From positions 96,001-160,000 of the forward strand of contig JANNVX010000098.1 of assembly GCA_031414595.1 (NCBI GenBank): a stretch of 64,000 nucleotides of DNA, written 5' to 3'. The notes under the pieces were generated by a model. The model made no database searches. It was given only the letters and a program-made list of their open reading frames with translations, and had not been told where the DNA came from. This DNA comes from Deinococcales bacterium (GTDB lineage: Bacteria; Deinococcota; Deinococci; Deinococcales; JAAFIG01). The translations under genes and the position numbers were made by a program. Each line of letters opens with the position of its first letter. The first letter of the stretch is position 1. Below, one piece after another: positions 4,368 through 13,023 of the stretch.

Positions 4368-5120
4368 TTGACCAGTACAGTGCTGGATGTGATTGCCCAA
4401 ACGCCTCTGAAGCCAAAATTTCAAATTCCTTTTCTGGTCTGGATGTACCTTGGGGTGATTGTTTTCTTGGGTGGATTGTACTTATTTGTCCCCAGTGTCC
4501 GTGTTTTTGTGACCCAATGCTTTGAAATTCTGGTCAGCAATGACCGTGGGCGTATCGAAACTTTTGTGGCGGGTTTTGGCTGGTGGGGACCGGTTTTAAT
4601 CATTGGCATGATGATTGCCCAAACGCTCTTAAGTGCCGTACCAATGATTCTGGTGTTGGTGGTGTCGGTACTGGCGTATGGTCCGATTTGGGGCGGCTTA
4701 CTCGGGTGGTGCGGCGCAATGATTGCAGCGATGGTTGGCTACGGGATTGCTCGAGTCTTTGGGGATACTTTACAAGATAAATTTGTGACCCCTAAAATTA
4801 GGGATATTATAGCCCGTAATGTTGCCAGATACGGCGCATTGGCAATTCTGGCGCTGCGTTTATCGCCACTGATTCCATCAGATGGTGTAAGTTTTGTGGC
4901 GGGTTTACTGCGAATGAACTTTGTGACTTTTCTGCTGGGAACGCTTAGCGGTGTTACCCCTTTGGTGATGGTCGTGGCGTATTTTGGCAGTGATTTTGAA
5001 CGCTTGACTGGTTTTGTTATTGGTGTGACGATTTTTAGTTTAACTGCTCTGATTTCATGGGTGATTTACGATGGGTTCATCAAACGCAAGAAGAATATCC
5101 AGCCTGTTGAATACAAATAA
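4368..5120 (+). CDS. TVP38/TMEM64 (VTT/DedA-like) membrane protein
   Basis: YGPIWGGLLGWCGA and LRLSPLIPSDGVSFVAGL motifs; highly hydrophobic. Confidence 0.85.
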   Translation: MTSTVLDVIAQTPLKPKFQIPFLVWMYLGVIVFLGGLYLFVPSVRVFVTQCFEILVSNDRGRIETFVAGFGWWGPVLIIGMMIAQTLLSAVPMILVLVVSVLAYGPIWGGLLGWCGAMIAAMVGYGIARVFGDTLQDKFVTPKIRDIIARNVARYGALAILALRLSPLIPSDGVSFVAGLLRMNFVTFLLGTLSGVTPLVMVVAYFGSDFERLTGFVIGVTIFSLTALISWVIYDGFIKRKKNIQPVEYK

Positions 5121-5136: not shown

Positions 5137-8100
5137 TCATTCGCTCGAGAGTTGTGCCAATAATTTTGCTTGTTCTAAAACAGTATTTGTCGCTGCTTCT
5201 TGTTGCTCTGGTGGATAGCCATACTTACGCAGTACCCGTTTAACCAAACGTCGTAAATTTGCTTGGACTTGTTCACGTACCGCCCAATCAATCGTGGTGT
5301 TATTACGAACAGTTTGTGCTACTTCTAAGGCAATGGTTCGCAGCACATCATCTGCCATGATTTGGTTAGAATCACCGTCTTGCAAGGCATCATAAAAGGC
5401 AATTTCATCCTCGGCAAGCCCCAATGTCTCACTTCGGCTCTGCACATCACGGTAGGCTCGAGCCAAGGCAATTAATTCCTCAATCACTTGGGCGGTTTCT
5501 ATCGCCCGATTCTGATACTTTAACAACGCAGCCTCGAGTTTTTGCGAAAAAGCCTTGGATTGAACCAAATTGCGTTTAGACCCTGTTTTAACTTCATCTT
5601 TCATTAAACGCTCGAGCAGTTCCACGGCTAAATTACGTTGCGGCATATTCTGAACTTCTGCTAGAAATGATTCAGATAAAATACTGATGTCGGGTTTTTT
5701 TAAGCCAGCCGCCGCGAAAATATCAATCACGCCTTCGGGAGCAACCGCACGTTCAACCAAGCGCTGAATTGCATCGTGCAAATCTGAACTGGCAGCTTGA
5801 CTACTTGTTCCGACACGTTTCTCGAAGGTCGCACGCACGGTTTGAAAAAATACAATTTCTTGACGCAATACAAGAGCTTCCTCGAGCGGCACAGATAACG
5901 CAAAGGCTTTCGCCAGTTCAAGCGAGGCTTTAATCAGGCGCTCCTTACCTTTTACTCGGTCTTGAGCCAAAATAAAATCCTGAGCTTCGGGCAGAATTGC
6001 CACGCGGTCAGACGGTGAACCGCTCATAAAATCCGAGTAATCAAAACCATGAAATAAACCACGGCAAATCGAAAGTTTTTCTTGTAAAACCGCAAAAGCT
6101 GCTTCTTGGTCAAGGGTTGGTGCGCCCTGACCGCCGCTACTGGTGTACGTGACCAGTGCCTCACGCAAATTATTGGCTAAACCAAGGTAATCCACCACCA
6201 AACCACCGGGCTTATTACTAAAAACCCGATTGACTCGAGCGATTGCCTGCATTAACCCATGACCACGCATTGGTTTATCCAAGTACATCGTGTGCAAACA
6301 AGGCACATCAAAACCTGTCAGCCACATATCACGCACAATCACCAATTTAAGATTTGAACGATCATCCCGAAAATGCTCGGCAATCGCACGCTGTCGCGCT
6401 TTAGAACGAATATGCGGCTGCCAATTGTCAGGGTCAGAAGCTGCGCCTGTCATCACCACTTTAAGCACACCATCGGTATCGGTTGCGCCAAACCACGCAG
6501 GACGAAGTTTAATCAGTTCATTGTACAAATCCACACAAATACGGCGACTCATACAGACAATCATGCCTTTACCAAGCAGCACTTCTTGCCGAGCTTCAAA
6601 ATGCTGAACTAAATCGGCGGCAATTTGCTCGAGCCGTTTTTTCGTACCAATCAGCGCCTCGAGTTGCGCCCATTTGGATTTTAGTTTTTCTTTACTAAAA
6701 GCCTCTTCTCCTTCGGTTACTTCTTCAAAACCATCATCTAAACGCGGTTTTTCCGACTCGAGCAAATCGAGTTTGGCTAACCTGGACTCATAATAAATCG
6801 GCACAGTTGCGCCATCATCCACTGCCCGTTGCACATCATAAATGTCTATGTACTCACCAAAAATACCACGGGTATTCTTATCGGTACTTTCGACTGGTGT
6901 ACCCGTAAAACCAAGAAACGTGGCATTTGGTAAGGCATCGCGCACATTTTGGGCAAATCCATAACGCAAATCGCCTGTTTGCAAATCCACTTTGGCTTCA
7001 AACCCATACTGGCTACGATGCGCTTCATCGGCAATCACCACGATATTGCGCCGAGGCGACAATTGCGGGAATTTATCACCGCGTTCTTCGGGTAAAAATT
7101 TTTGAATCGTGGTAAAAACCACACCGCCCGCTTCACGCTCGAGCAACAGCCGTAAGTCTGCCCTGTTACCCGCTTGCACAGGGGTTTGACGCAGTAAATC
7201 CTTGCACCTCGAGAAAGTCCCAAACAGTTGGTCGTCTAAATCGTTACGGTCGGTTAAAATGACAATGGTTGGGCTTGCCAGTGCTGCGCTCTGCACCAAG
7301 CCACCCGCAAAGAACACCATCGTTAAACTCTTACCACTTCCTTGGGTATGCCAAACCACACCGCCCTTACCATCACCAATTGCGCTCGAAGCTGCCACGG
7401 TACTTTGCAAGGCTTTTTGCACCGCAAAAAACTGATGATACGCTGCAATTTTCTTATTAATACTCGAGCCGAAATCCTCGAACACAATAAAACCACGCAA
7501 AAACGCCAGTAAGCGCGAGCGTTCAAACACACCCTTAATCAAAGTCTCGAGCGATTCAGACAGCAACTCCGTACCAGACACGGTTTTCCACGGCACAAAA
7601 CGCTCCATTTCTGCGCCAACACAACCAAGCCGTGCCTGCACCCCATCGGAAATGACCAGCAGGGCATTAAAAATAAACAACCGACTAATCTGGTTCTGAT
7701 AGGTTCTAAGCTGCTGATAGGCATTTTCGATGGTGGCTTTACTGTCCGCCGCGTTTTTAAGTTCAATTACGGCAATTGGTAAACCGTTCAGGTAAACCAC
7801 AACATCTGGGCGGCGGTTAATCTGCCCATCTATCACCGTTAATTGATTGACCACCAACCAATTGTTGGCATCTGGATTTTGCCAATCTACCAGCCGCACC
7901 AAAAAACCACGCAGCCCACCATCTTGCAGCACCTCGGTTTCGACACCCTCGGCAAGCAACTTATGAAACGCCCGATTGTTTTGCATTAATGCCGGAAATT
8001 CAGGCGTAGACACACGCCGCACGGCTTCCTCGAGCGCCAAATCTGGGGCAGTTGGATTCAAACGCCGCAACGCATCCCGCAAACGCCCAAGCAGTAATAC

Positions 8101-8232
8101 TTCACGAAAAGATCCGCGTTCGGCACATTTTTCTTCTGGCGCAATACTCGGACCAAATTCGTACTCGTAACCAAGACCGCGCAACCACTCGAGCGAGGCT
8201 TGTTCAACAGTATTTTCGTTAAAAGAAGGCAT
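5137..8232 (-). CDS. hsdR: Type I restriction enzyme, R subunit
   Basis: [20 protein letters not shown] nuclease motif, [34 protein letters not shown]. Confidence 0.97.
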
Positions 8233-8252
8233 TAAAAAAGATTATCGCACAT

Positions 8253-8281
8253 TTGCAGCACAAGACAGATTTTGCTATAAT
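8253..8281 (+). promoter_or_regulatory. Putative sigma70 promoter pointing toward the higA 3' end, divergent from hsdR
   Basis: TTGCAG (8253-8258), 17-bp spacer, TGcTATAAT extended -10 (TATAAT at 8276-8281). Confidence 0.55.
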
Positions 8282-8320
8282 TTTTGTAGTCTCATCTACC
8301 AAGCTGTAGAAAGAGCGTTC

Positions 8321-8351
8321 GGGGTCGTCCAAAAGGGCGACCCTAGTTTTT
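8321..8351 (+). terminator. Hairpin/terminator at the higA stop
   Basis: GGGTCGTCC-AAAA-GGGCGACCC stem followed by TAGTTTTT. Confidence 0.55.
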
Positions 8352-8609
8352 AGAATTCTCGAGTTGATGTGCCTTCGTGAGCGCAAACTGACTCTCGAGA
8401 TTAAGCCAAAAGACGGCTGGCACACGCAAAGCCACCTCTAATTGCAAAGCGGTTTCTGGTGTAATGGACTTTGTACCCTGAATAATTTCGTTAATTGCTG
8501 TGGCAGGTCTGCCCATGCGCCGTGCCAAATCAGCTTGGGTCATACCAAAGCCCTCTAAAATCTCAGCAATGTACTTACCTGGAGCAATAGCCAAATCCGA
8601 GTACAACAC
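8343..8609 (-). CDS. higA: HigA-family (XRE HTH) addiction-module antidote; no cognate toxin adjacent
   Basis: GGAGGTGA RBS then GTG at 8609; AIAPGKYIAEIL..GMTQADLARRMGRP..INEII.G.KSITPETALQLE..FWLNLE is the HigA signature. Confidence 0.85.
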   Translation of the reverse strand: MLYSDLAIAPGKYIAEILEGFGMTQADLARRMGRPATAINEIIQGTKSITPETALQLEVALRVPAVFWLNLESQFALTKAHQLENSKN

Positions 8610-8613
8610 GTTA

Positions 8614-8745
8614 TCACCTCCTCGAGTCAAACCAAACGATGAACATCCAATTCCCCAGAAAGCAATTTGGGAAGCAAAAAATCTCGAGCGTAGCTTGTTC
8701 AACAGTATTTTCGTCAAAAGAAGGCATTGCAAAGATTATCGCACA
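8614..8745 (-). pseudogene. Chimeric remnant: duplicated hsdR 5' end fused at CTCGAG to a duplicated hsdS 3' end
   Basis: 8683-8745 matches 8188-8251 (hsdR start; MPSFDENTVEQATLE vs [15 protein letters not shown]). 8614-8688 matches 9506-9580 at 65/75 nt (hsdS end; RDFLLPKLLSGELDVHRLV* vs RDSLLPKLLSGELDVGNLV*). The two overlap at CTCGAG 8683-8688. Confidence 0.9.
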
Positions 8746-8754
8746 AAAGAAAAA

Positions 8755-9372
8755 TCACCATGTTGTTGGCTTCAGAATTAGAGTACCTAAACCACCCACA
8801 ACAGAATTCGGCAATTGAGCCTTAGATAACTTATCAAGGGGTAACGTAGCGTTCTTATCAGCAGCACTTCGTAATTCTCGAGCCGCCCCACGCATTTTAT
8901 CTCGAGCAGGAACGTAGACCGTTATTTTTATACTCGGAAAACGCTGTTTAATCAACCGTATTGTTGGCACAAGATCAGAATCACCACTGACCAAAACCAT
9001 ACGATCACACAAACCCCTGTACGCATCATCTAACATTCGCAAAGCAATGTTGACATCCGTACCTTTTTCCTCTGGCATCTGAAATTCTTTAAGCCCACCA
9101 AAAGAACAACCTGAAACACGACACTTCACTTTTTTAGTTTTGAATAAACCATATTCAATTTGCAACTTCTGAGAAGCAGCTTCAAGCGCTTGCAAGTAAG
9201 TTGTTTGGTCAGGAGTACCTGTTCGAGCCGTAAAATACCAAACTTGCTGAATGATGTCATCTTGTCGAATCAAACTAAATAATTTCTCGAGGTCAAGCCA
9301 TTTTTCAGACGAACCTTTTAACGCTCCGTAGTACAAGTTGAAACCATCAATATAAATAATACTTCGATTCAT
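8755..9372 (-). CDS. NYN domain (LabA/DUF88, PIN-like) putative ribonuclease
   Basis: IYIDGFNLYYG, EEKGTDVNIA and LVSGDSDLVP motifs with the acidic catalytic residues intact. Confidence 0.9.
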   Translation of the reverse strand: MNRSIIYIDGFNLYYGALKGSSEKWLDLEKLFSLIRQDDIIQQVWYFTARTGTPDQTTYLQALEAASQKLQIEYGLFKTKKVKCRVSGCSFGGLKEFQMPEEKGTDVNIALRMLDDAYRGLCDRMVLVSGDSDLVPTIRLIKQRFPSIKITVYVPARDKMRGAARELRSAADKNATLPLDKLSKAQLPNSVVGGLGTLILKPTTW

Positions 9373-9397
9373 TCTGTTATGTCCTAAATCAACTTAT

Positions 9398-9448
9398 AAA
9401 AAAAAGGCAGCCACTGGAGCTGCCCAACCGGTTGCCCGGGGAGTTGTG
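9398..9448 (-). ncRNA. Candidate ~50-nt structured RNA with intrinsic terminator upstream of the NYN gene
   Basis: Minus strand: ACAACUCC-CCGG-GCAA-CCGG-UUG-GGCAGC-UCCAGUG-GCUGCC-U8. A GNRA-capped hairpin plus a terminator hairpin, lying between the promoter and the NYN RBS. Confidence 0.55.
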
Positions 9449-9453
9449 ACAAG

Positions 9454-9482
9454 AATCTACAAGAAGCATCTTGATTTGTCAA
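9454..9482 (-). promoter_or_regulatory. Sigma70-type promoter of the RNA/NYN unit
   Basis: TTGACA (9482-9477), 17-bp spacer, TAGATT (9459-9454). Confidence 0.7.
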
Positions 9483-9518
9483 CTAACCAAGATGCTCACA
9501 AATGCTCACCTCCTCGAG

Positions 9519-10730
9519 TTAAACCAAATTGCCAACATCCAATTCCCCAGAAAGCAACTTAGGAAGCAATGAATCTCGAGTCGTAGAAAGTCGTACAGAC
9601 TCCAAGCGATTTTCAAGGGACTTCTCATATAAAGGCTGAACAGCTTCTGAAAACCTAAATGCTATCTCTGGTGACGGAACAATGATTTCTGCTTGTAGTA
9701 CATCGTTAGGTCTTGCACGTTGATGACTTTTGGATGTTCCTGTAACTTTTGACGCAAAGATACCTGTGAAAAAATCAGAATTTAAGATGCCATGGACAAA
9801 GAATTTTACCTGCAAATCTCGAGGCATCACAACTAAAAATTCTGTTGAGGCAATAGCGCGACGTTCAGGGTGAATAACAGTCAACCAAACTCGAGGGGTT
9901 TCTGGATTTAATTTCGATACAAGAATAGAATCTGACTGAACCATAAATTTATTACTAAGAATAGACACGCCTAAGTCTTGCATTGGTATTTGTCCAGCAT
10001 CAAAAGCAGGTAAACTAAAATGATCAAAAAGCTCATCTGGAAAAGCCTGCGGGGTCAGTGTTGCTTTTGACAATGTAATAAACTTCTCAAGTGTTCCAAC
10101 CTCCCAGCCTTCTGGAATTTCGCCCATGCTCGAGCTAACAAAAGCACTTGGAAATAACGCTGCCGTAGCCGCATCCACACCCTTTGGCTCGAGACCAAGC
10201 GCTTTGGCTCTGACCACATCAAAATTCACAAACCAAGATTTGAAAAGCGTTTGTGCCATTGCCTCGAGTGTTGCGTTGGTACGGCGGTTCAGTTCGATTT
10301 TATCATCTAAAGCCCCGAGGATGAAAGCGATTTTCTTTTGGGTCTCGAGGGGTGGGAGGTAAACTTTATAAAGATGGACATGATTCCGATTGATTCCAGG
10401 AACGCTGCTTTTGTCATTGAATTGTTGGAAGTCCAATGTTTTCAAAAGATAGTAAACAAAGTGTGGTTCGTTACCATGAAAATCTTTCACCCATAAAGTT
10501 GTGTTCAAAGGAAAGAAATCTTCTTCAATAAAAAATACTTGACCAATTGTTCCGTATCGTCCTGTAACAACACCAGGAGCAGTAACTCGAGCTTCATTAT
10601 GTGTATCTGTTTTACCAGAAGAAGAAATTATCGGAATATTCCCCAACTTTCGATTCTGCTGTGGTAAATCAAAACCTCTTTGTAAAGTCGCAACTTCACC
10701 AAGTGTTATCTCGAGCCAATCCGCATTCAT
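9519..10730 (-). CDS. hsdS: Type I R-M specificity subunit
   Basis: Two TRDs; conserved LPPLETQKKIAFILGALDDKIELNRRTNATLEAMAQTLFKSWFV, GEIPEGW and RDSLLPKLLSGEL. Confidence 0.95.
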   Translation of the reverse strand: MNADWLEITLGEVATLQRGFDLPQQNRKLGNIPIISSSGKTDTHNEARVTAPGVVTGRYGTIGQVFFIEEDFFPLNTTLWVKDFHGNEPHFVYYLLKTLDFQQFNDKSSVPGINRNHVHLYKVYLPPLETQKKIAFILGALDDKIELNRRTNATLEAMAQTLFKSWFVNFDVVRAKALGLEPKGVDAATAALFPSAFVSSSMGEIPEGWEVGTLEKFITLSKATLTPQAFPDELFDHFSLPAFDAGQIPMQDLGVSILSNKFMVQSDSILVSKLNPETPRVWLTVIHPERRAIASTEFLVVMPRDLQVKFFVHGILNSDFFTGIFASKVTGTSKSHQRARPNDVLQAEIIVPSPEIAFRFSEAVQPLYEKSLENRLESVRLSTTRDSLLPKLLSGELDVGNLV

Positions 10731-10763
10731 GTCTTCGCCTTGTCTCGAGCAGGTAAAAAATAA

Positions 10764-11468
10764 TTACCGCACATGAAAATCCACTCCCAATTTTACCAAT
10801 GCTGCTTCAACACCAATTACACCCCGCGTCTCGAGCCATTTTGTGGGGTTGTTGCGGATGTACCGCGCAATATTCCCAAACATCAGGTCATCACGCACAA
10901 TGACCTCATAATAATTACGTTGCCAAAAACGAACCCCAGAACGCCCCAAATGTTTATTTACCCCGATTGCCGAAATGGATTTGAACGCCCGTATAATTTC
11001 CGATAACGATGCGTGTTTTGTTTTGGTTGTCGTACTGGTTGGGGCGCTGGTTGGGGCGCTGCTTGCCGCGCCCTGCCCTTGACCCTGCCCTTTTAATCCC
11101 GCGTTAATGGGCGCAGCGAGCAGCGCCCCTACTACGGGATTTTGGTCATGGTCACGAACGGGATTTTGGTCATGGTCGTGTATGGGATTTTTGGGATTTG
11201 CCGGGTTGATGATAATAATGCCGTGTACATGGTCGGGCATGATCATAAATTCGTCGGTTTGGATATTAAATCGGTTTGGTAATTCGTTCCATGTGTTTTG
11301 GATAATTTGTCCTATTTCGGTTGGGTTTGCTGTGTTGTTTTGTATGATACTCAAAGTATCGTCGCGGTGTTCGGTACAAATCGTAATGAAGTACGCGCCA
11401 CTCGAGGTGTAGTCGTAGTTTTTTAGTCGAATACTTTGTCGGTGGCGCTTATTTGGGTTGTAGGGCAT
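10764..11468 (-). mobile_element. REP-associated tyrosine transposase (RAYT, Y1 HUH family)
   Basis: RQSIRLKNYDY..GAYFITICT, MPDHVHGII (HUH) and FWQRNYYEVIVR..IARYIRNNP. Overlaps the hsdM stop. Confidence 0.9.
11053..11132. repeat. Inverted pair of GTAG-type REP sequences inside the RAYT ORF
   Basis: Minus strand GTAGGGGCGCTGCTCGCTGCGCCC ... GGGCGCGGCAAGCAGCGCCCC, translated in frame as VGALLAAP...GAASSAPT. Confidence 0.75.
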
Positions 11469-13023
11469 AGCCTAGTTTCTCCAAGTTGGTTTTTATTTGT
11501 TGCTCGAGTATTGCGCTTTGTGCAAATTGGCTGTGTAAGTCTTGGGTTAGTCGTTGCATTTTCTGCTCGAAAGGTTCGCTGTCTGGTTCTTGGGCTTCGA
11601 TGCCAACGTACCGTCCGGGGGTTAGGACGTATCCGTGGGTTTTGATTTCTTCTAGGTTGGCACTTTTGCAGTATCCGGCTTGGTCGGTGTATTGCCCGTG
11701 TCCGTCGCCGCGCCAGTTGTGGTAGGTGCTGGCGATTTGGGCAATGTCTGTGTCGGTAAAGTTGCGGTTGACCCTTGTTTCCATAAACCCAAGTTTTCGG
11801 GCATCTATAAAAAGGGTATGACCGCTTCGGTCACGCAAGGAGCGCCCCTCGAGTCCTCGTCCGTTTTTCTTGTTACGGGCGATAAACCATAAAGCTACGG
11901 GGATTTGAGTGGTGTAAAAAAGCTGTCCGGGCATGGAAACAATGCAGTCCACAAGGTCGGCTTCAATAATTCTCTGGCGGATGTCACCTTCGCCGCTCGA
12001 GTTACTGCTGAGCGAACCGTTAGCAAGCACAAATCCTGCAATCCCATTTGGAGCAAGGTGATAAATCATATGCTGCATCCATGCGTAATTGGCGTTGCTG
12101 TTAGGAGGTGTACCGTGTTGCCAGCGTCCGTCTTCTCGCAAGTTTTCGCCGCCCCAATCAGAAATGTTAAAGGGTGGGTTCGCCAGAATATAATCGGCGC
12201 GTAAATCTGGGTGCTGGTTGTTGTGGAAAGTATCGGCGTTTTGTGTGCCTAGATTTGCCTCGAGTCCGCGAATGGCAAGGTTCATTTTGGCAAGTTTCCA
12301 AGTGGTGGGGTTGCTTTCTTGTCCGTAAATACTGACATCGCCAATTTTTCCACCGTGGGCTTCGACGAACTTTTCGCTACTGACAAACATTCCGCCCGAG
12401 CCACAAGCAGGGTCATAGATTCGTCCTTTGTAGGGTGCAAGCATTTCAACAATCACCCGTACTACGCTGGTGGGGGTGTAGAATTCTCCACCGAGTTTAC
12501 CTTCGGCACTGGCAAATTTGGATAGAAAGTATTCGTAGACTCGCCCAAGCATATCTTTGCTCGAGTTTTTCTGATTTTGCCCAGCTTCGGCACTTGCCAT
12601 TTTCAGGTCACTAAATTTGTCTATCAGTTCACCGAGTTTGGTTTTGTCTAGGGTTGGTCGGGCAAAATCTTTGGGTAGTACACCTTTTAACTGCTTGGGA
12701 TTTTCGTTCTCGAGCAATTCCATGGCTTGGTCTATCAGTGTTCCAATTTTAGAATCCTTAGCGTTTTCTTGTAAGTAAATCCATCGTGCTTTGGGCGGAA
12801 CCCAAAAAATGCCTTCGGCGGCGTATTCGTCTCGGTCTTCGGCGGCTTCTATGCCAAATTCTTGTTTGATGCGCTCAAACTGTCCTGTGAAGGCATCTGA
12901 AATGTATTTTAGGAAAATGAGTCCGAGTACGATGTGTTTGTATTCGGCTGCGTCCATATGACCGCGTAGTTTATCGGCGGCTGCCCAAAGAATACTTTCA
13001 AACTGCCTGTTGGTGGTTTCCAT
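11449..13023 (-). CDS. hsdM: Type I R-M methyltransferase subunit
   Basis: [25 protein letters not shown] and ANPPFN (N6-adenine MTase). Confidence 0.97.

Follow-up and report, generated by a model that had tools for sequence, protein, structure and literature searches.

Comparative sequence analysis shows that a conserved, structured small RNA, separately promoted and terminated, is a genetic partner of a family of predicted NYN nucleases. The element was studied in a 64,000-nt stretch of DNA from a Deinococcales bacterium (JAAFIG01; assembly GCA_031414595.1, contig JANNVX010000098.1, positions 96,001-160,000 of the forward strand), hereafter called the window, in which an NYN gene (LabA-like, PIN-like; 205 amino acids; 8755-9372, minus strand) lies inside a type I restriction-modification (R-M) locus directly behind an RNA of about 50 nt. 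A first-pass annotation of this DNA had singled out the order of promoter, RNA, terminator, and NYN gene within the R-M locus as a candidate RNA-antitoxin module; this order was confirmed in the sequence, and it recurs in homologous loci. Our best reading, to which we give a probability of roughly 0.45, is that the NYN nuclease and a dedicated RNA antitoxin of ~50 nt form a two-gene RNA-protein module that would work in a type III-like manner.

The small RNA in the window

The promoter of the small RNA is of the sigma-70 type (9482-9454, minus strand, as are the other RNA features below) and consists of TTGACA (9482-9477), a spacer of 17 nt, and TAGATT (9459-9454); with 10 of 12 consensus positions, it deserves the description of near-consensus given to it in the first-pass annotation. 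Transcription probably starts near 9447, and the predicted RNA (9447-9398) folds into two hairpins. It opens with the conserved 5' block ACAACUCCCC (9447-9438), its 5' end being single-stranded (ACAACUCC) with a C-rich tail of 8 nt. This is followed by hairpin 1 (CCGG-GCAA-CCGG with a GCAA loop; 9439-9428), a UU linker, and hairpin 2, the G+C-rich terminator of 8 bp (GGGCAGCU-CCAGU-GGCUGCCU; 9425-9405), with a run of eight U residues at 9405-9398. Covariance model R1, described below, matches positions 9393-9449 with a score of 58.3 bits and an E value of 3e-12. About 25 nt lie between the end of the terminator and the ATG of the NYN gene (9372), including an AGGA ribosome-binding site (9385-9382, read from the sequence) 9 nt upstream of the ATG; this is too little space for a separate NYN promoter.

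As a single sequence, the region is no better than chance, with 6 promoter-like sites observed versus 4.6 expected and 2 terminator-like sites observed versus 3.8 expected in a 3-kb scan, and the 80-nt leader showed no excess stability (fold z-score of -1.36). What raises the feature above chance is comparative evidence among related sequences, not single-sequence statistics. Covariance model and leader searches located a single copy of the RNA in the 4.49-Mb genome, and a dispersed repeat was rejected on this ground. No Rfam 15 family matched window positions 8000-11000 with an E value of ≤1, and none matched at the RNA in 8 loci spanning all RNA types. In the literature on NYN proteins with an RNA antitoxin, type III, a small RNA, an RNA motif, or HEC-09, we found no report of this RNA. 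The protein family is already catalogued (HEC-09, NYN.COG1432); its RNA partner is new and has no family in Rfam 15.

The RNA adjoins NYN genes in many phyla

We collected 80 NYN loci from many phyla, read their upstream regions, and built three covariance models, R1, R2, and R3, which were searched against the window and the 80 loci (685 kb); 27 of these loci were not seeds. In the recurring architecture, the promoter is followed by a short C-rich 5' tail and a variable hairpin, which a linker of 2-5 nt joins to the terminator hairpin and U-run. One or more of the three models matched next to NYN with an E value of ≤0.01 in 74 of the 80 loci, the weakest counted match (L038) being exactly at 0.01, and 21 of the 27 non-seed loci were matched. 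No model match with an E value of <0.05 was found away from NYN in the 685 kb. Among the missed loci, L059 and L073 have weak matches (E values of 0.04 and 0.2) at the position corresponding to their relative L074, and in L032 and L033 a Verrucomicrobial variant can be recognized by eye and with a descriptor. With the model-free descriptor, 61 of 79 and 39 of 73 upstream windows were positive versus 4 of 231 and 3 of 219 control windows. In a set of viral contigs not used for the models, 31 of 77 loci were matched, one of them (L169) weakly and just downstream of NYN; many of the unmatched loci have the same architecture by eye, e.g., a Bacteroidota variant behind Bacteroidota-type promoters.

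The first-pass annotation had named, as the alternative to its proposal, that the hairpin is only a terminator of hsdS, the specificity gene of the R-M system. This alternative is contradicted by the survey, as the RNA occurs with NYN in 74 of 80 loci and type I R-M genes lie within 4 kb in only 4 of 80.

We then examined 151 genomes of the window's own order. The R1-type RNA was found in exactly the 4 genomes that have a close NYN, always beside it, and once more as an orphan copy. In three genomes (G014, G023, and G001), more distant NYN genes have an R2- or R3-type RNA alongside, and in two others (G053 and G123) an RNA beside a distant NYN was seen by eye. Weak R2 or R3 matches (E values of 1e-5 to 1e-3) in G018 and G074 (two places each, one of the two examined in G074), G032, G075:C199, G101, G109, G141, and G143 were rejected as ordinary terminators or false positives with unrelated neighbors; those examined included thiolase, Rad52, GCV_T, histidine kinase, DDE transposase, and TamB genes or open reading frames (ORFs) without a Pfam match.

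Two loci showed additional features. In G053 (L095), a second unit of promoter (TTGACA-17-TACAAT), one hairpin, and U-run follows the NYN stop codon, besides the upstream R2-type RNA. On a 4.6-kb ColE1-type plasmid of Klebsiella pneumoniae (L201, 1490-1722), a distant NYN (~35% identity) lies behind a different, longer structured region with two imperfect direct repeats of 53 nt, a terminator 10 nt before the start codon, and a fold z-score of -4.07; this layout is closer to that of classical type III systems.

Compensatory changes support both hairpins

Compensatory changes were found in 10 of 13 pairs of the R1-type alignment, 13 of 14 pairs of the R2-type alignment, and 13 of 15 pairs of the R3-type alignment, with none of 500 shuffles reaching the observed values in any of the three, and they support both helices in every RNA type. 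Controls with slid pairing partners scored far lower in all three alignments. These alignments were fitted to the models and so are biased toward structure; in a plain MAFFT alignment, which was not model-fitted, hairpin 2 already displayed 6 covarying pairs of 8. Among the pairs, G·U was present 69 times versus 18 for A·C, an excess which indicates that pairing is selected on the transcribed strand. The consensus fold consists of two nested hairpins, with no pseudoknot seen, and the sequence of the 5' tail and linker is conserved within each RNA type.

A conserved, covarying RNA upstream of NYN homologues was the check that the first-pass annotation had proposed for its idea, and the 74 loci and the covariation counts supply it. 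Together, the three models describe an RNA family whose covariation is clear and which could be deposited and used for annotation.

The RNA appears to be a gene of its own

Relative to NYN, the RNA is in tandem in 46 of the 76 loci with RNA and divergent in 27; in the other 3, it is convergent and directly behind the NYN stop codon. Promoter-like sites (at least 8 of 12 consensus positions) occur directly upstream of the RNA in 56 of the 76 loci, compared to 84 of 3,000 random positions (2.8%). In the tandem loci, the median gap between the RNA and the NYN start is 16 nt, and in 43 of 46 the gap is no longer than 36 nt (range there, 3-36 nt). This is too short for anything but transcription of NYN by read-through of the RNA terminator, an arrangement that would force an excess of the RNA over the NYN message.

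A quick maximum-likelihood tree of 75 NYN proteins was computed with IQ-TREE after L034, L043, L062, L064, L065, and L081 were dropped, as their start-codon choice gave truncated translations. In this tree, three supported NYN clades correspond to the three RNA types, with 7 label changes, the minimum possible, and divergent and convergent R2-type variants are nested inside the tandem R2 clade, suggesting that the RNA was retained when its orientation changed. Some loci also hold more than one copy of the RNA: there are two each in L060, L067, L070, and L087, and four in L079 (Dehalococcoidia; 4655-5033, minus strand), where the RNA genes lie head to tail ~105 nt apart, convergent to and just downstream of NYN, each with its own TTGACA-17-TAATAT promoter and terminator. 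Taken together, the divergent and convergent placement, the multiple self-promoted copies, and the tracking of NYN clade by RNA type argue that the RNA is a separate trans-acting gene, more than a leader or an hsdS terminator. The earlier description of the RNA as cis-encoded is too narrow; as an autonomous gene, it is found in divergent or convergent position in other loci.

The NYN protein belongs to the HEC-09 family

The product of the NYN gene matches Pfam PF01936 with 54.5 bits, above the gathering score of 24.2 (E value of 2.4e-14), and the PADLOC profile HEC-09 over its full length (protein residues 1-205 and profile positions 1-202 of 203; E value of 1.5e-45). HEC-09 is an NYN candidate embedded in Hma defense systems, according to the part of the preprint used here (bioRxiv 10.1101/2024.01.29.577857), and the gene in the window likewise lies inside a defense system, between hsdS and hsdR. 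Its AlphaFold model (pLDDT of 92) has the NYN fold, the best Foldseek matches being LabA-like 2qip and the MARF1 NYN domain. The catalytic acidic residues, which had been reported intact from the sequence of this one protein, turned out to be invariant; D9, N12, E101, E102, D106, D131, and D133 are the same in all of 26 diverse NYN homologues, and many basic residues vary little or not at all.

NYN homologues number more than 5,600. The gene is a sporadic accessory gene, present in 11 of the 151 genomes of the same order and found on 145 plasmids and 77 viral contigs. The bacterial NYN.COG1432 group is listed as "function unknown" and without an RNA partner in the section of PMC5499597 consulted. 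Many homologues carry the source name "6-hydroxy-3-succinoylpyridine 3-monooxygenase." The same section traces this name to a LabA homologue of Pseudomonas putida S16 and suggests another domain of that protein as the one responsible; for these NYN proteins, the name is probably misleading. Altogether, the small RNA adds a component to a family catalogued as a single-gene defense candidate of unknown function.

A proposed mechanism and its alternatives

By analogy with type III toxin-antitoxin (TA) pairs, one promoter would drive both the RNA and NYN in tandem loci, including that of the window. Most transcripts would end at the terminator, yielding the RNA in large excess, and rare read-through transcripts would carry the NYN message; elsewhere, the excess could be secured by extra copies of the RNA gene. 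The RNA would bind NYN directly and restrain its nuclease activity. Upon collapse of transcription or degradation of the RNA, e.g., by phage infection or loss of the element, free NYN would then cleave cellular or phage RNA. Orphan RNAs without NYN parallel orphan antitoxins, and we count them in favor of an antitoxin.

A different role in partnership with NYN, that of an obligate cofactor, guide, or scaffold in a ribonucleoprotein enzyme, with the RNA positioning NYN on a target or the ribosome, for example, seems to us unlikely. The data on co-occurrence, co-divergence, and arrangement in trans fit it equally, and the conservation of the 5' tail and linker within each type is as expected for a specific contact with a protein or target. 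It would also account for the lack of defense by HEC-09 (bioRxiv 10.1101/2024.01.29.577857, the part used here) if the RNA was missing from the tested construct or unexpressed. However, the single-stranded parts, which are nearly invariant and no longer than 8 nt, cannot encode variable targets; extra copies and orphans without NYN suit an antidote better; and a layout of promoter, terminator, and gene that forces RNA excess follows type III logic. That the RNA acts mainly in cis, as an attenuator or insulator keeping NYN low and perhaps as a site on its own message that NYN binds or cleaves for autoregulation, we hold to be rather improbable. The tandem loci speak for it, as NYN can be expressed there only by read-through of a terminator that, in 43 of 46, lies 3-36 nt ahead of the start codon, but the RNA is outside the NYN message in the 27 divergent and 3 convergent loci, the multicopy arrays are self-promoted, and orphan copies exist. 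Folding of the window leader revealed no evident alternative antiterminator, and conservation extends to hairpin 1, the tail, and the linker, none of which a plain terminator needs.

Two further explanations fare worse. It is very improbable that the RNA works as a type I-like antisense RNA whose C-rich tail, CUCCCC, pairs with the Shine-Dalgarno region of NYN and blocks translation, even though CUCCCC is complementary to ribosome-binding sites of the GGGGAG type and the minimum-free-energy fold of the window leader pairs the 5' region with the AGGA region. Part of this pairing uses bases upstream of the probable transcription start, in a leader whose z-score, given above, is unexceptional, and the duplex energies of cognate, non-cognate, and shuffled pairs are alike (-8.83, -8.84, and -9.01 kcal/mol; n = 76). 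Since the 5' tail has no excess complementarity to the NYN initiation region, this anti-Shine-Dalgarno candidate was rejected. Least credible of all is that there is no functional RNA, and that the element is either an hsdS terminator with a chance promoter or a DNA-level hairpin, for instance a REP or a site of recombination for the nearby RAYT-like transposase. The position directly after hsdS, the RAYT-like gene at 10764-11468, the nonsignificant single-sequence statistics, and two orphan copies beside hsdS could be so explained. Yet the element follows NYN and not hsdS, as the survey counts demonstrate, and promoters and U-runs are conserved on one strand. The excess of G·U over A·C, the promoters, and the single genomic copy, which is not that of a dispersed repeat, led us to reject the DNA-level hairpin or RAYT substrate.

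Several observations weigh against the antitoxin proposal itself. NYN toxicity, binding of the RNA to NYN, and inhibition rather than activation are steps that we infer by analogy, and two defining features of type III systems, tandem repeats and a ToxN-like toxin, are absent. In the only published test of the protein family, which bears on the putative role in phage defense or as a backup of the R-M system, HEC-09 gave no protection against the phages tested, with a construct containing a "putative native promoter region," as stated in the part of the preprint used here (bioRxiv 10.1101/2024.01.29.577857). Two loci (L028 and L043) have an intact NYN and no RNA recognizable to the models or on reading. 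Conversely, in two strong cases RNAs occur with no adjacent NYN: G055:C444 (L104/L107) has an R2-type copy before hsdS and an R1-type copy after it, and G025 (L106) has an R2-type copy between a pair of PIN_3 and HicB/RHH-like genes and half an hsdS. These orphans beside hsdS show that the RNA can persist, or act, next to R-M genes without NYN, so that in the window's own lineage the RNA may be linked to R-M loci. Finally, in a scan of neighbors that covered L010-L061 (52 of the 80 loci) and, of 154 ORFs, the first 100, about half proved to be housekeeping and not defense genes (e.g., rpoD, lepA, tRNA synthetases, and peptidases).

Other findings on orphans and neighbors are as follows. In G075, NYN follows an RNA similar to the R1-type orphan, which makes loss of NYN a plausible origin of the orphan. 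Four truncated NYN remnants on viral contigs (L191, L192, L198, and L200) keep the RNA. About a fifth of the 100 neighboring ORFs are mobile, TA, or defense genes, including the helicase and methylase of the Hma setting, and helicase or methylase neighbors as in that setting are present in L056, L061, and L067.

With its thousands of members in at least 10 phyla, and on plasmids and prophages as well, the NYN family has a wide reach. We lean slightly toward the broader view that NYN/HEC-09 proteins and their RNAs of ~50-65 nt constitute a large unrecognized class. This class would be either a fourth, structurally unrelated branch of RNA antitoxins, in which a unit-length RNA, transcribed independently, gates a PIN-like RNase, or an RNA-dependent nuclease whose RNA is a sensor removed by phage infection. 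The existence of this RNA component may explain the lack of phenotype when the protein was tested.

The type I R-M locus and its cargo slot

The R-M genes of the window are all on the minus strand and comprise the methylase gene hsdM (11449-13023; Pfam N6_Mtase and HsdM_N), hsdS (9519-10730; Methylase_S), and the restriction subunit gene hsdR (5137-8232; HSDR_N, SWI2_SNF2, and T1RH-like_C). A RAYT-like ORF of 234 amino acids (10764-11468, minus strand) with a partial IS200/RAYT-type Y1 transposase domain, scoring 62.9 in NCBIfam and so below the cut-off of 80, lies in the interval from hsdM to hsdS, where it overlaps the end of hsdM. Besides NYN, the hsdS-hsdR slot contains a second cargo, a HigA-like helix-turn-helix (HTH) gene (8343-8612, minus strand; TIGR02607 HigA, E value of 5e-17; HTH_3). 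Its likely start is GTG (8612-8610), preceded by a GAGGAGG site, as read from the sequence, and the gene lies behind a copy of the ribosome-binding site at the hsdS end. No HigB-like partner was found at the locus; a 68-amino-acid ORF (8219-8425, minus strand) without a family match overlaps the HigA-like gene.

The upstream boundary of the RNA-NYN cassette is the hsdS 3' end with the downstream ribosome-binding site (9506-9580, minus strand), which is duplicated at 8614-8688 (75 nt, 87% identity). Downstream of NYN lies a junction scar (8614-8745, minus strand), where a copy of the region upstream of hsdR and its first codons (8683-8745, matching the hsdR start region at 8188-8251) is fused to the hsdS 3'-end copy (8614-8688). 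The promoter, RNA, and NYN (9505-8746) are thus bracketed by intact and vestigial copies of the hsdS/hsdR junctions, which implies that recombination between R-M loci differing in cargo brought the cassette in, the scar being its trace. G055 has the same arrangement with 99% identity. In G015, of the same genus (L123, 1584-2630), the slot is occupied by a 348-amino-acid ORF, SIR2-like by eye, whose start overlaps the hsdS stop and whose end overlaps the hsdR start, and there is no RNA. The slot appears to hold variable cargo, and the absence of both NYN and RNA from the slot in G015 suggests that the RNA arrives and leaves together with NYN. Altogether, these sequences indicate that the RNA-NYN module moves as a cassette, occupying a variable cargo slot here, and the window illustrates how such modules may enter the slot, with duplicated junctions as the record of recombination.

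In L092 (G060:C929), the RNA-NYN cassette lies between direct copies of a CTCGAG-containing element of ~60 nt, two upstream and one downstream, which suggests a repeat-bounded cassette. In the window, CTCGAG occurs 346 times (about once per 185 bp), in genic and intergenic positions, and the next palindromic hexamer 36 times; it behaves as a highly iterated palindrome.

Just after the hsdS stop, an inverted repeat of 15 nt (9465-9496; 87% complementary) is centered on the -35 hexamer of the RNA promoter. It could be an operator or, in hsdS read-through transcripts, an RNA hairpin, and the HigA-like HTH protein might bind it. Comparable palindromes around the -35 hexamer were seen by eye in L024 and L034.

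Comparison with known systems

IstR/TisB is a type I TA pair in which a divergently encoded small RNA has its own promoter and terminator and the toxin is a small membrane peptide. The RNA-NYN module resembles it in having a self-promoted, terminated small RNA beside a putative toxin gene, sometimes divergently, and differs in the lack of extended complementarity between the RNA and the NYN message and in having a nuclease as its putative toxin. The anticodon nuclease PrrC is a latent RNase encoded in the hsdS-hsdR slot of the EcoprrI type I R-M locus and silenced by the R-M protein complex; it is not known to be silenced by an RNA. The NYN gene, predicted to encode a latent RNase as well, occupies the same slot, whereas its fold is unrelated and its module has an RNA of its own and is mostly found away from R-M loci. 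MARF1 is a eukaryotic multidomain mRNA-decay factor. With LabA-like and MARF1 NYN domains (NYN.COG1432 group, PMC5499597), the window protein has the fold and the acidic active-site residues in common. HEC-09 represents the same protein family and is likewise embedded in a multigene defense system; in the part of the preprint used here (bioRxiv 10.1101/2024.01.29.577857), however, it is described as a single-gene candidate with no mention of RNA, and it is hosted by Hma, not by type I R-M genes. What is new here is the partner RNA.

Type III systems are defined, in the portion of PMC12283969 drawn on here, by a promoter, a noncoding RNA, and a Rho-independent terminator directly before an endoribonuclease gene. 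Like ToxIN, CptIN, and TenpIN, the module has a terminator directly before an RNase-type gene under a shared upstream promoter, in the window and in 46 of 76 loci, with a probable excess of RNA, and both kinds of system are found on plasmids, on prophages, and in defense loci. A type III RNA is a tandem-repeat array cut into units by the toxin, whereas the RNA here is a single promoter-terminator unit; Tandem Repeats Finder returned no rows in 9300-9600, and the multicopy loci consist of separate promoter-terminator units. The RNA has two simple hairpins with no pseudoknot seen, and its gene may be divergent or convergent to the protein gene, an arrangement that, to our knowledge, known type III loci do not have. 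The protein, in place of the ToxN/AbiQ fold, has an NYN/PIN-like fold, as Pfam gave NYN only and the best Foldseek matches were 2qip and MARF1 NYN, with no ToxN/AbiQ-like fold found. The first-pass annotation had placed the pairing of RNA and NYN outside the three families, and the lack of tandem repeats and of a ToxN-like fold agrees with this; its term "type III-like" holds for the shared promoter and terminator layout and fails on these same two features. By analogy, then, the module would at most function in the type III manner, and it falls outside ToxIN, CptIN, and TenpIN. If the RNA is an inhibitor, RNA antitoxins are not confined to ToxN-like toxins and repeat arrays, and searches requiring tandem repeats have missed a widespread class.

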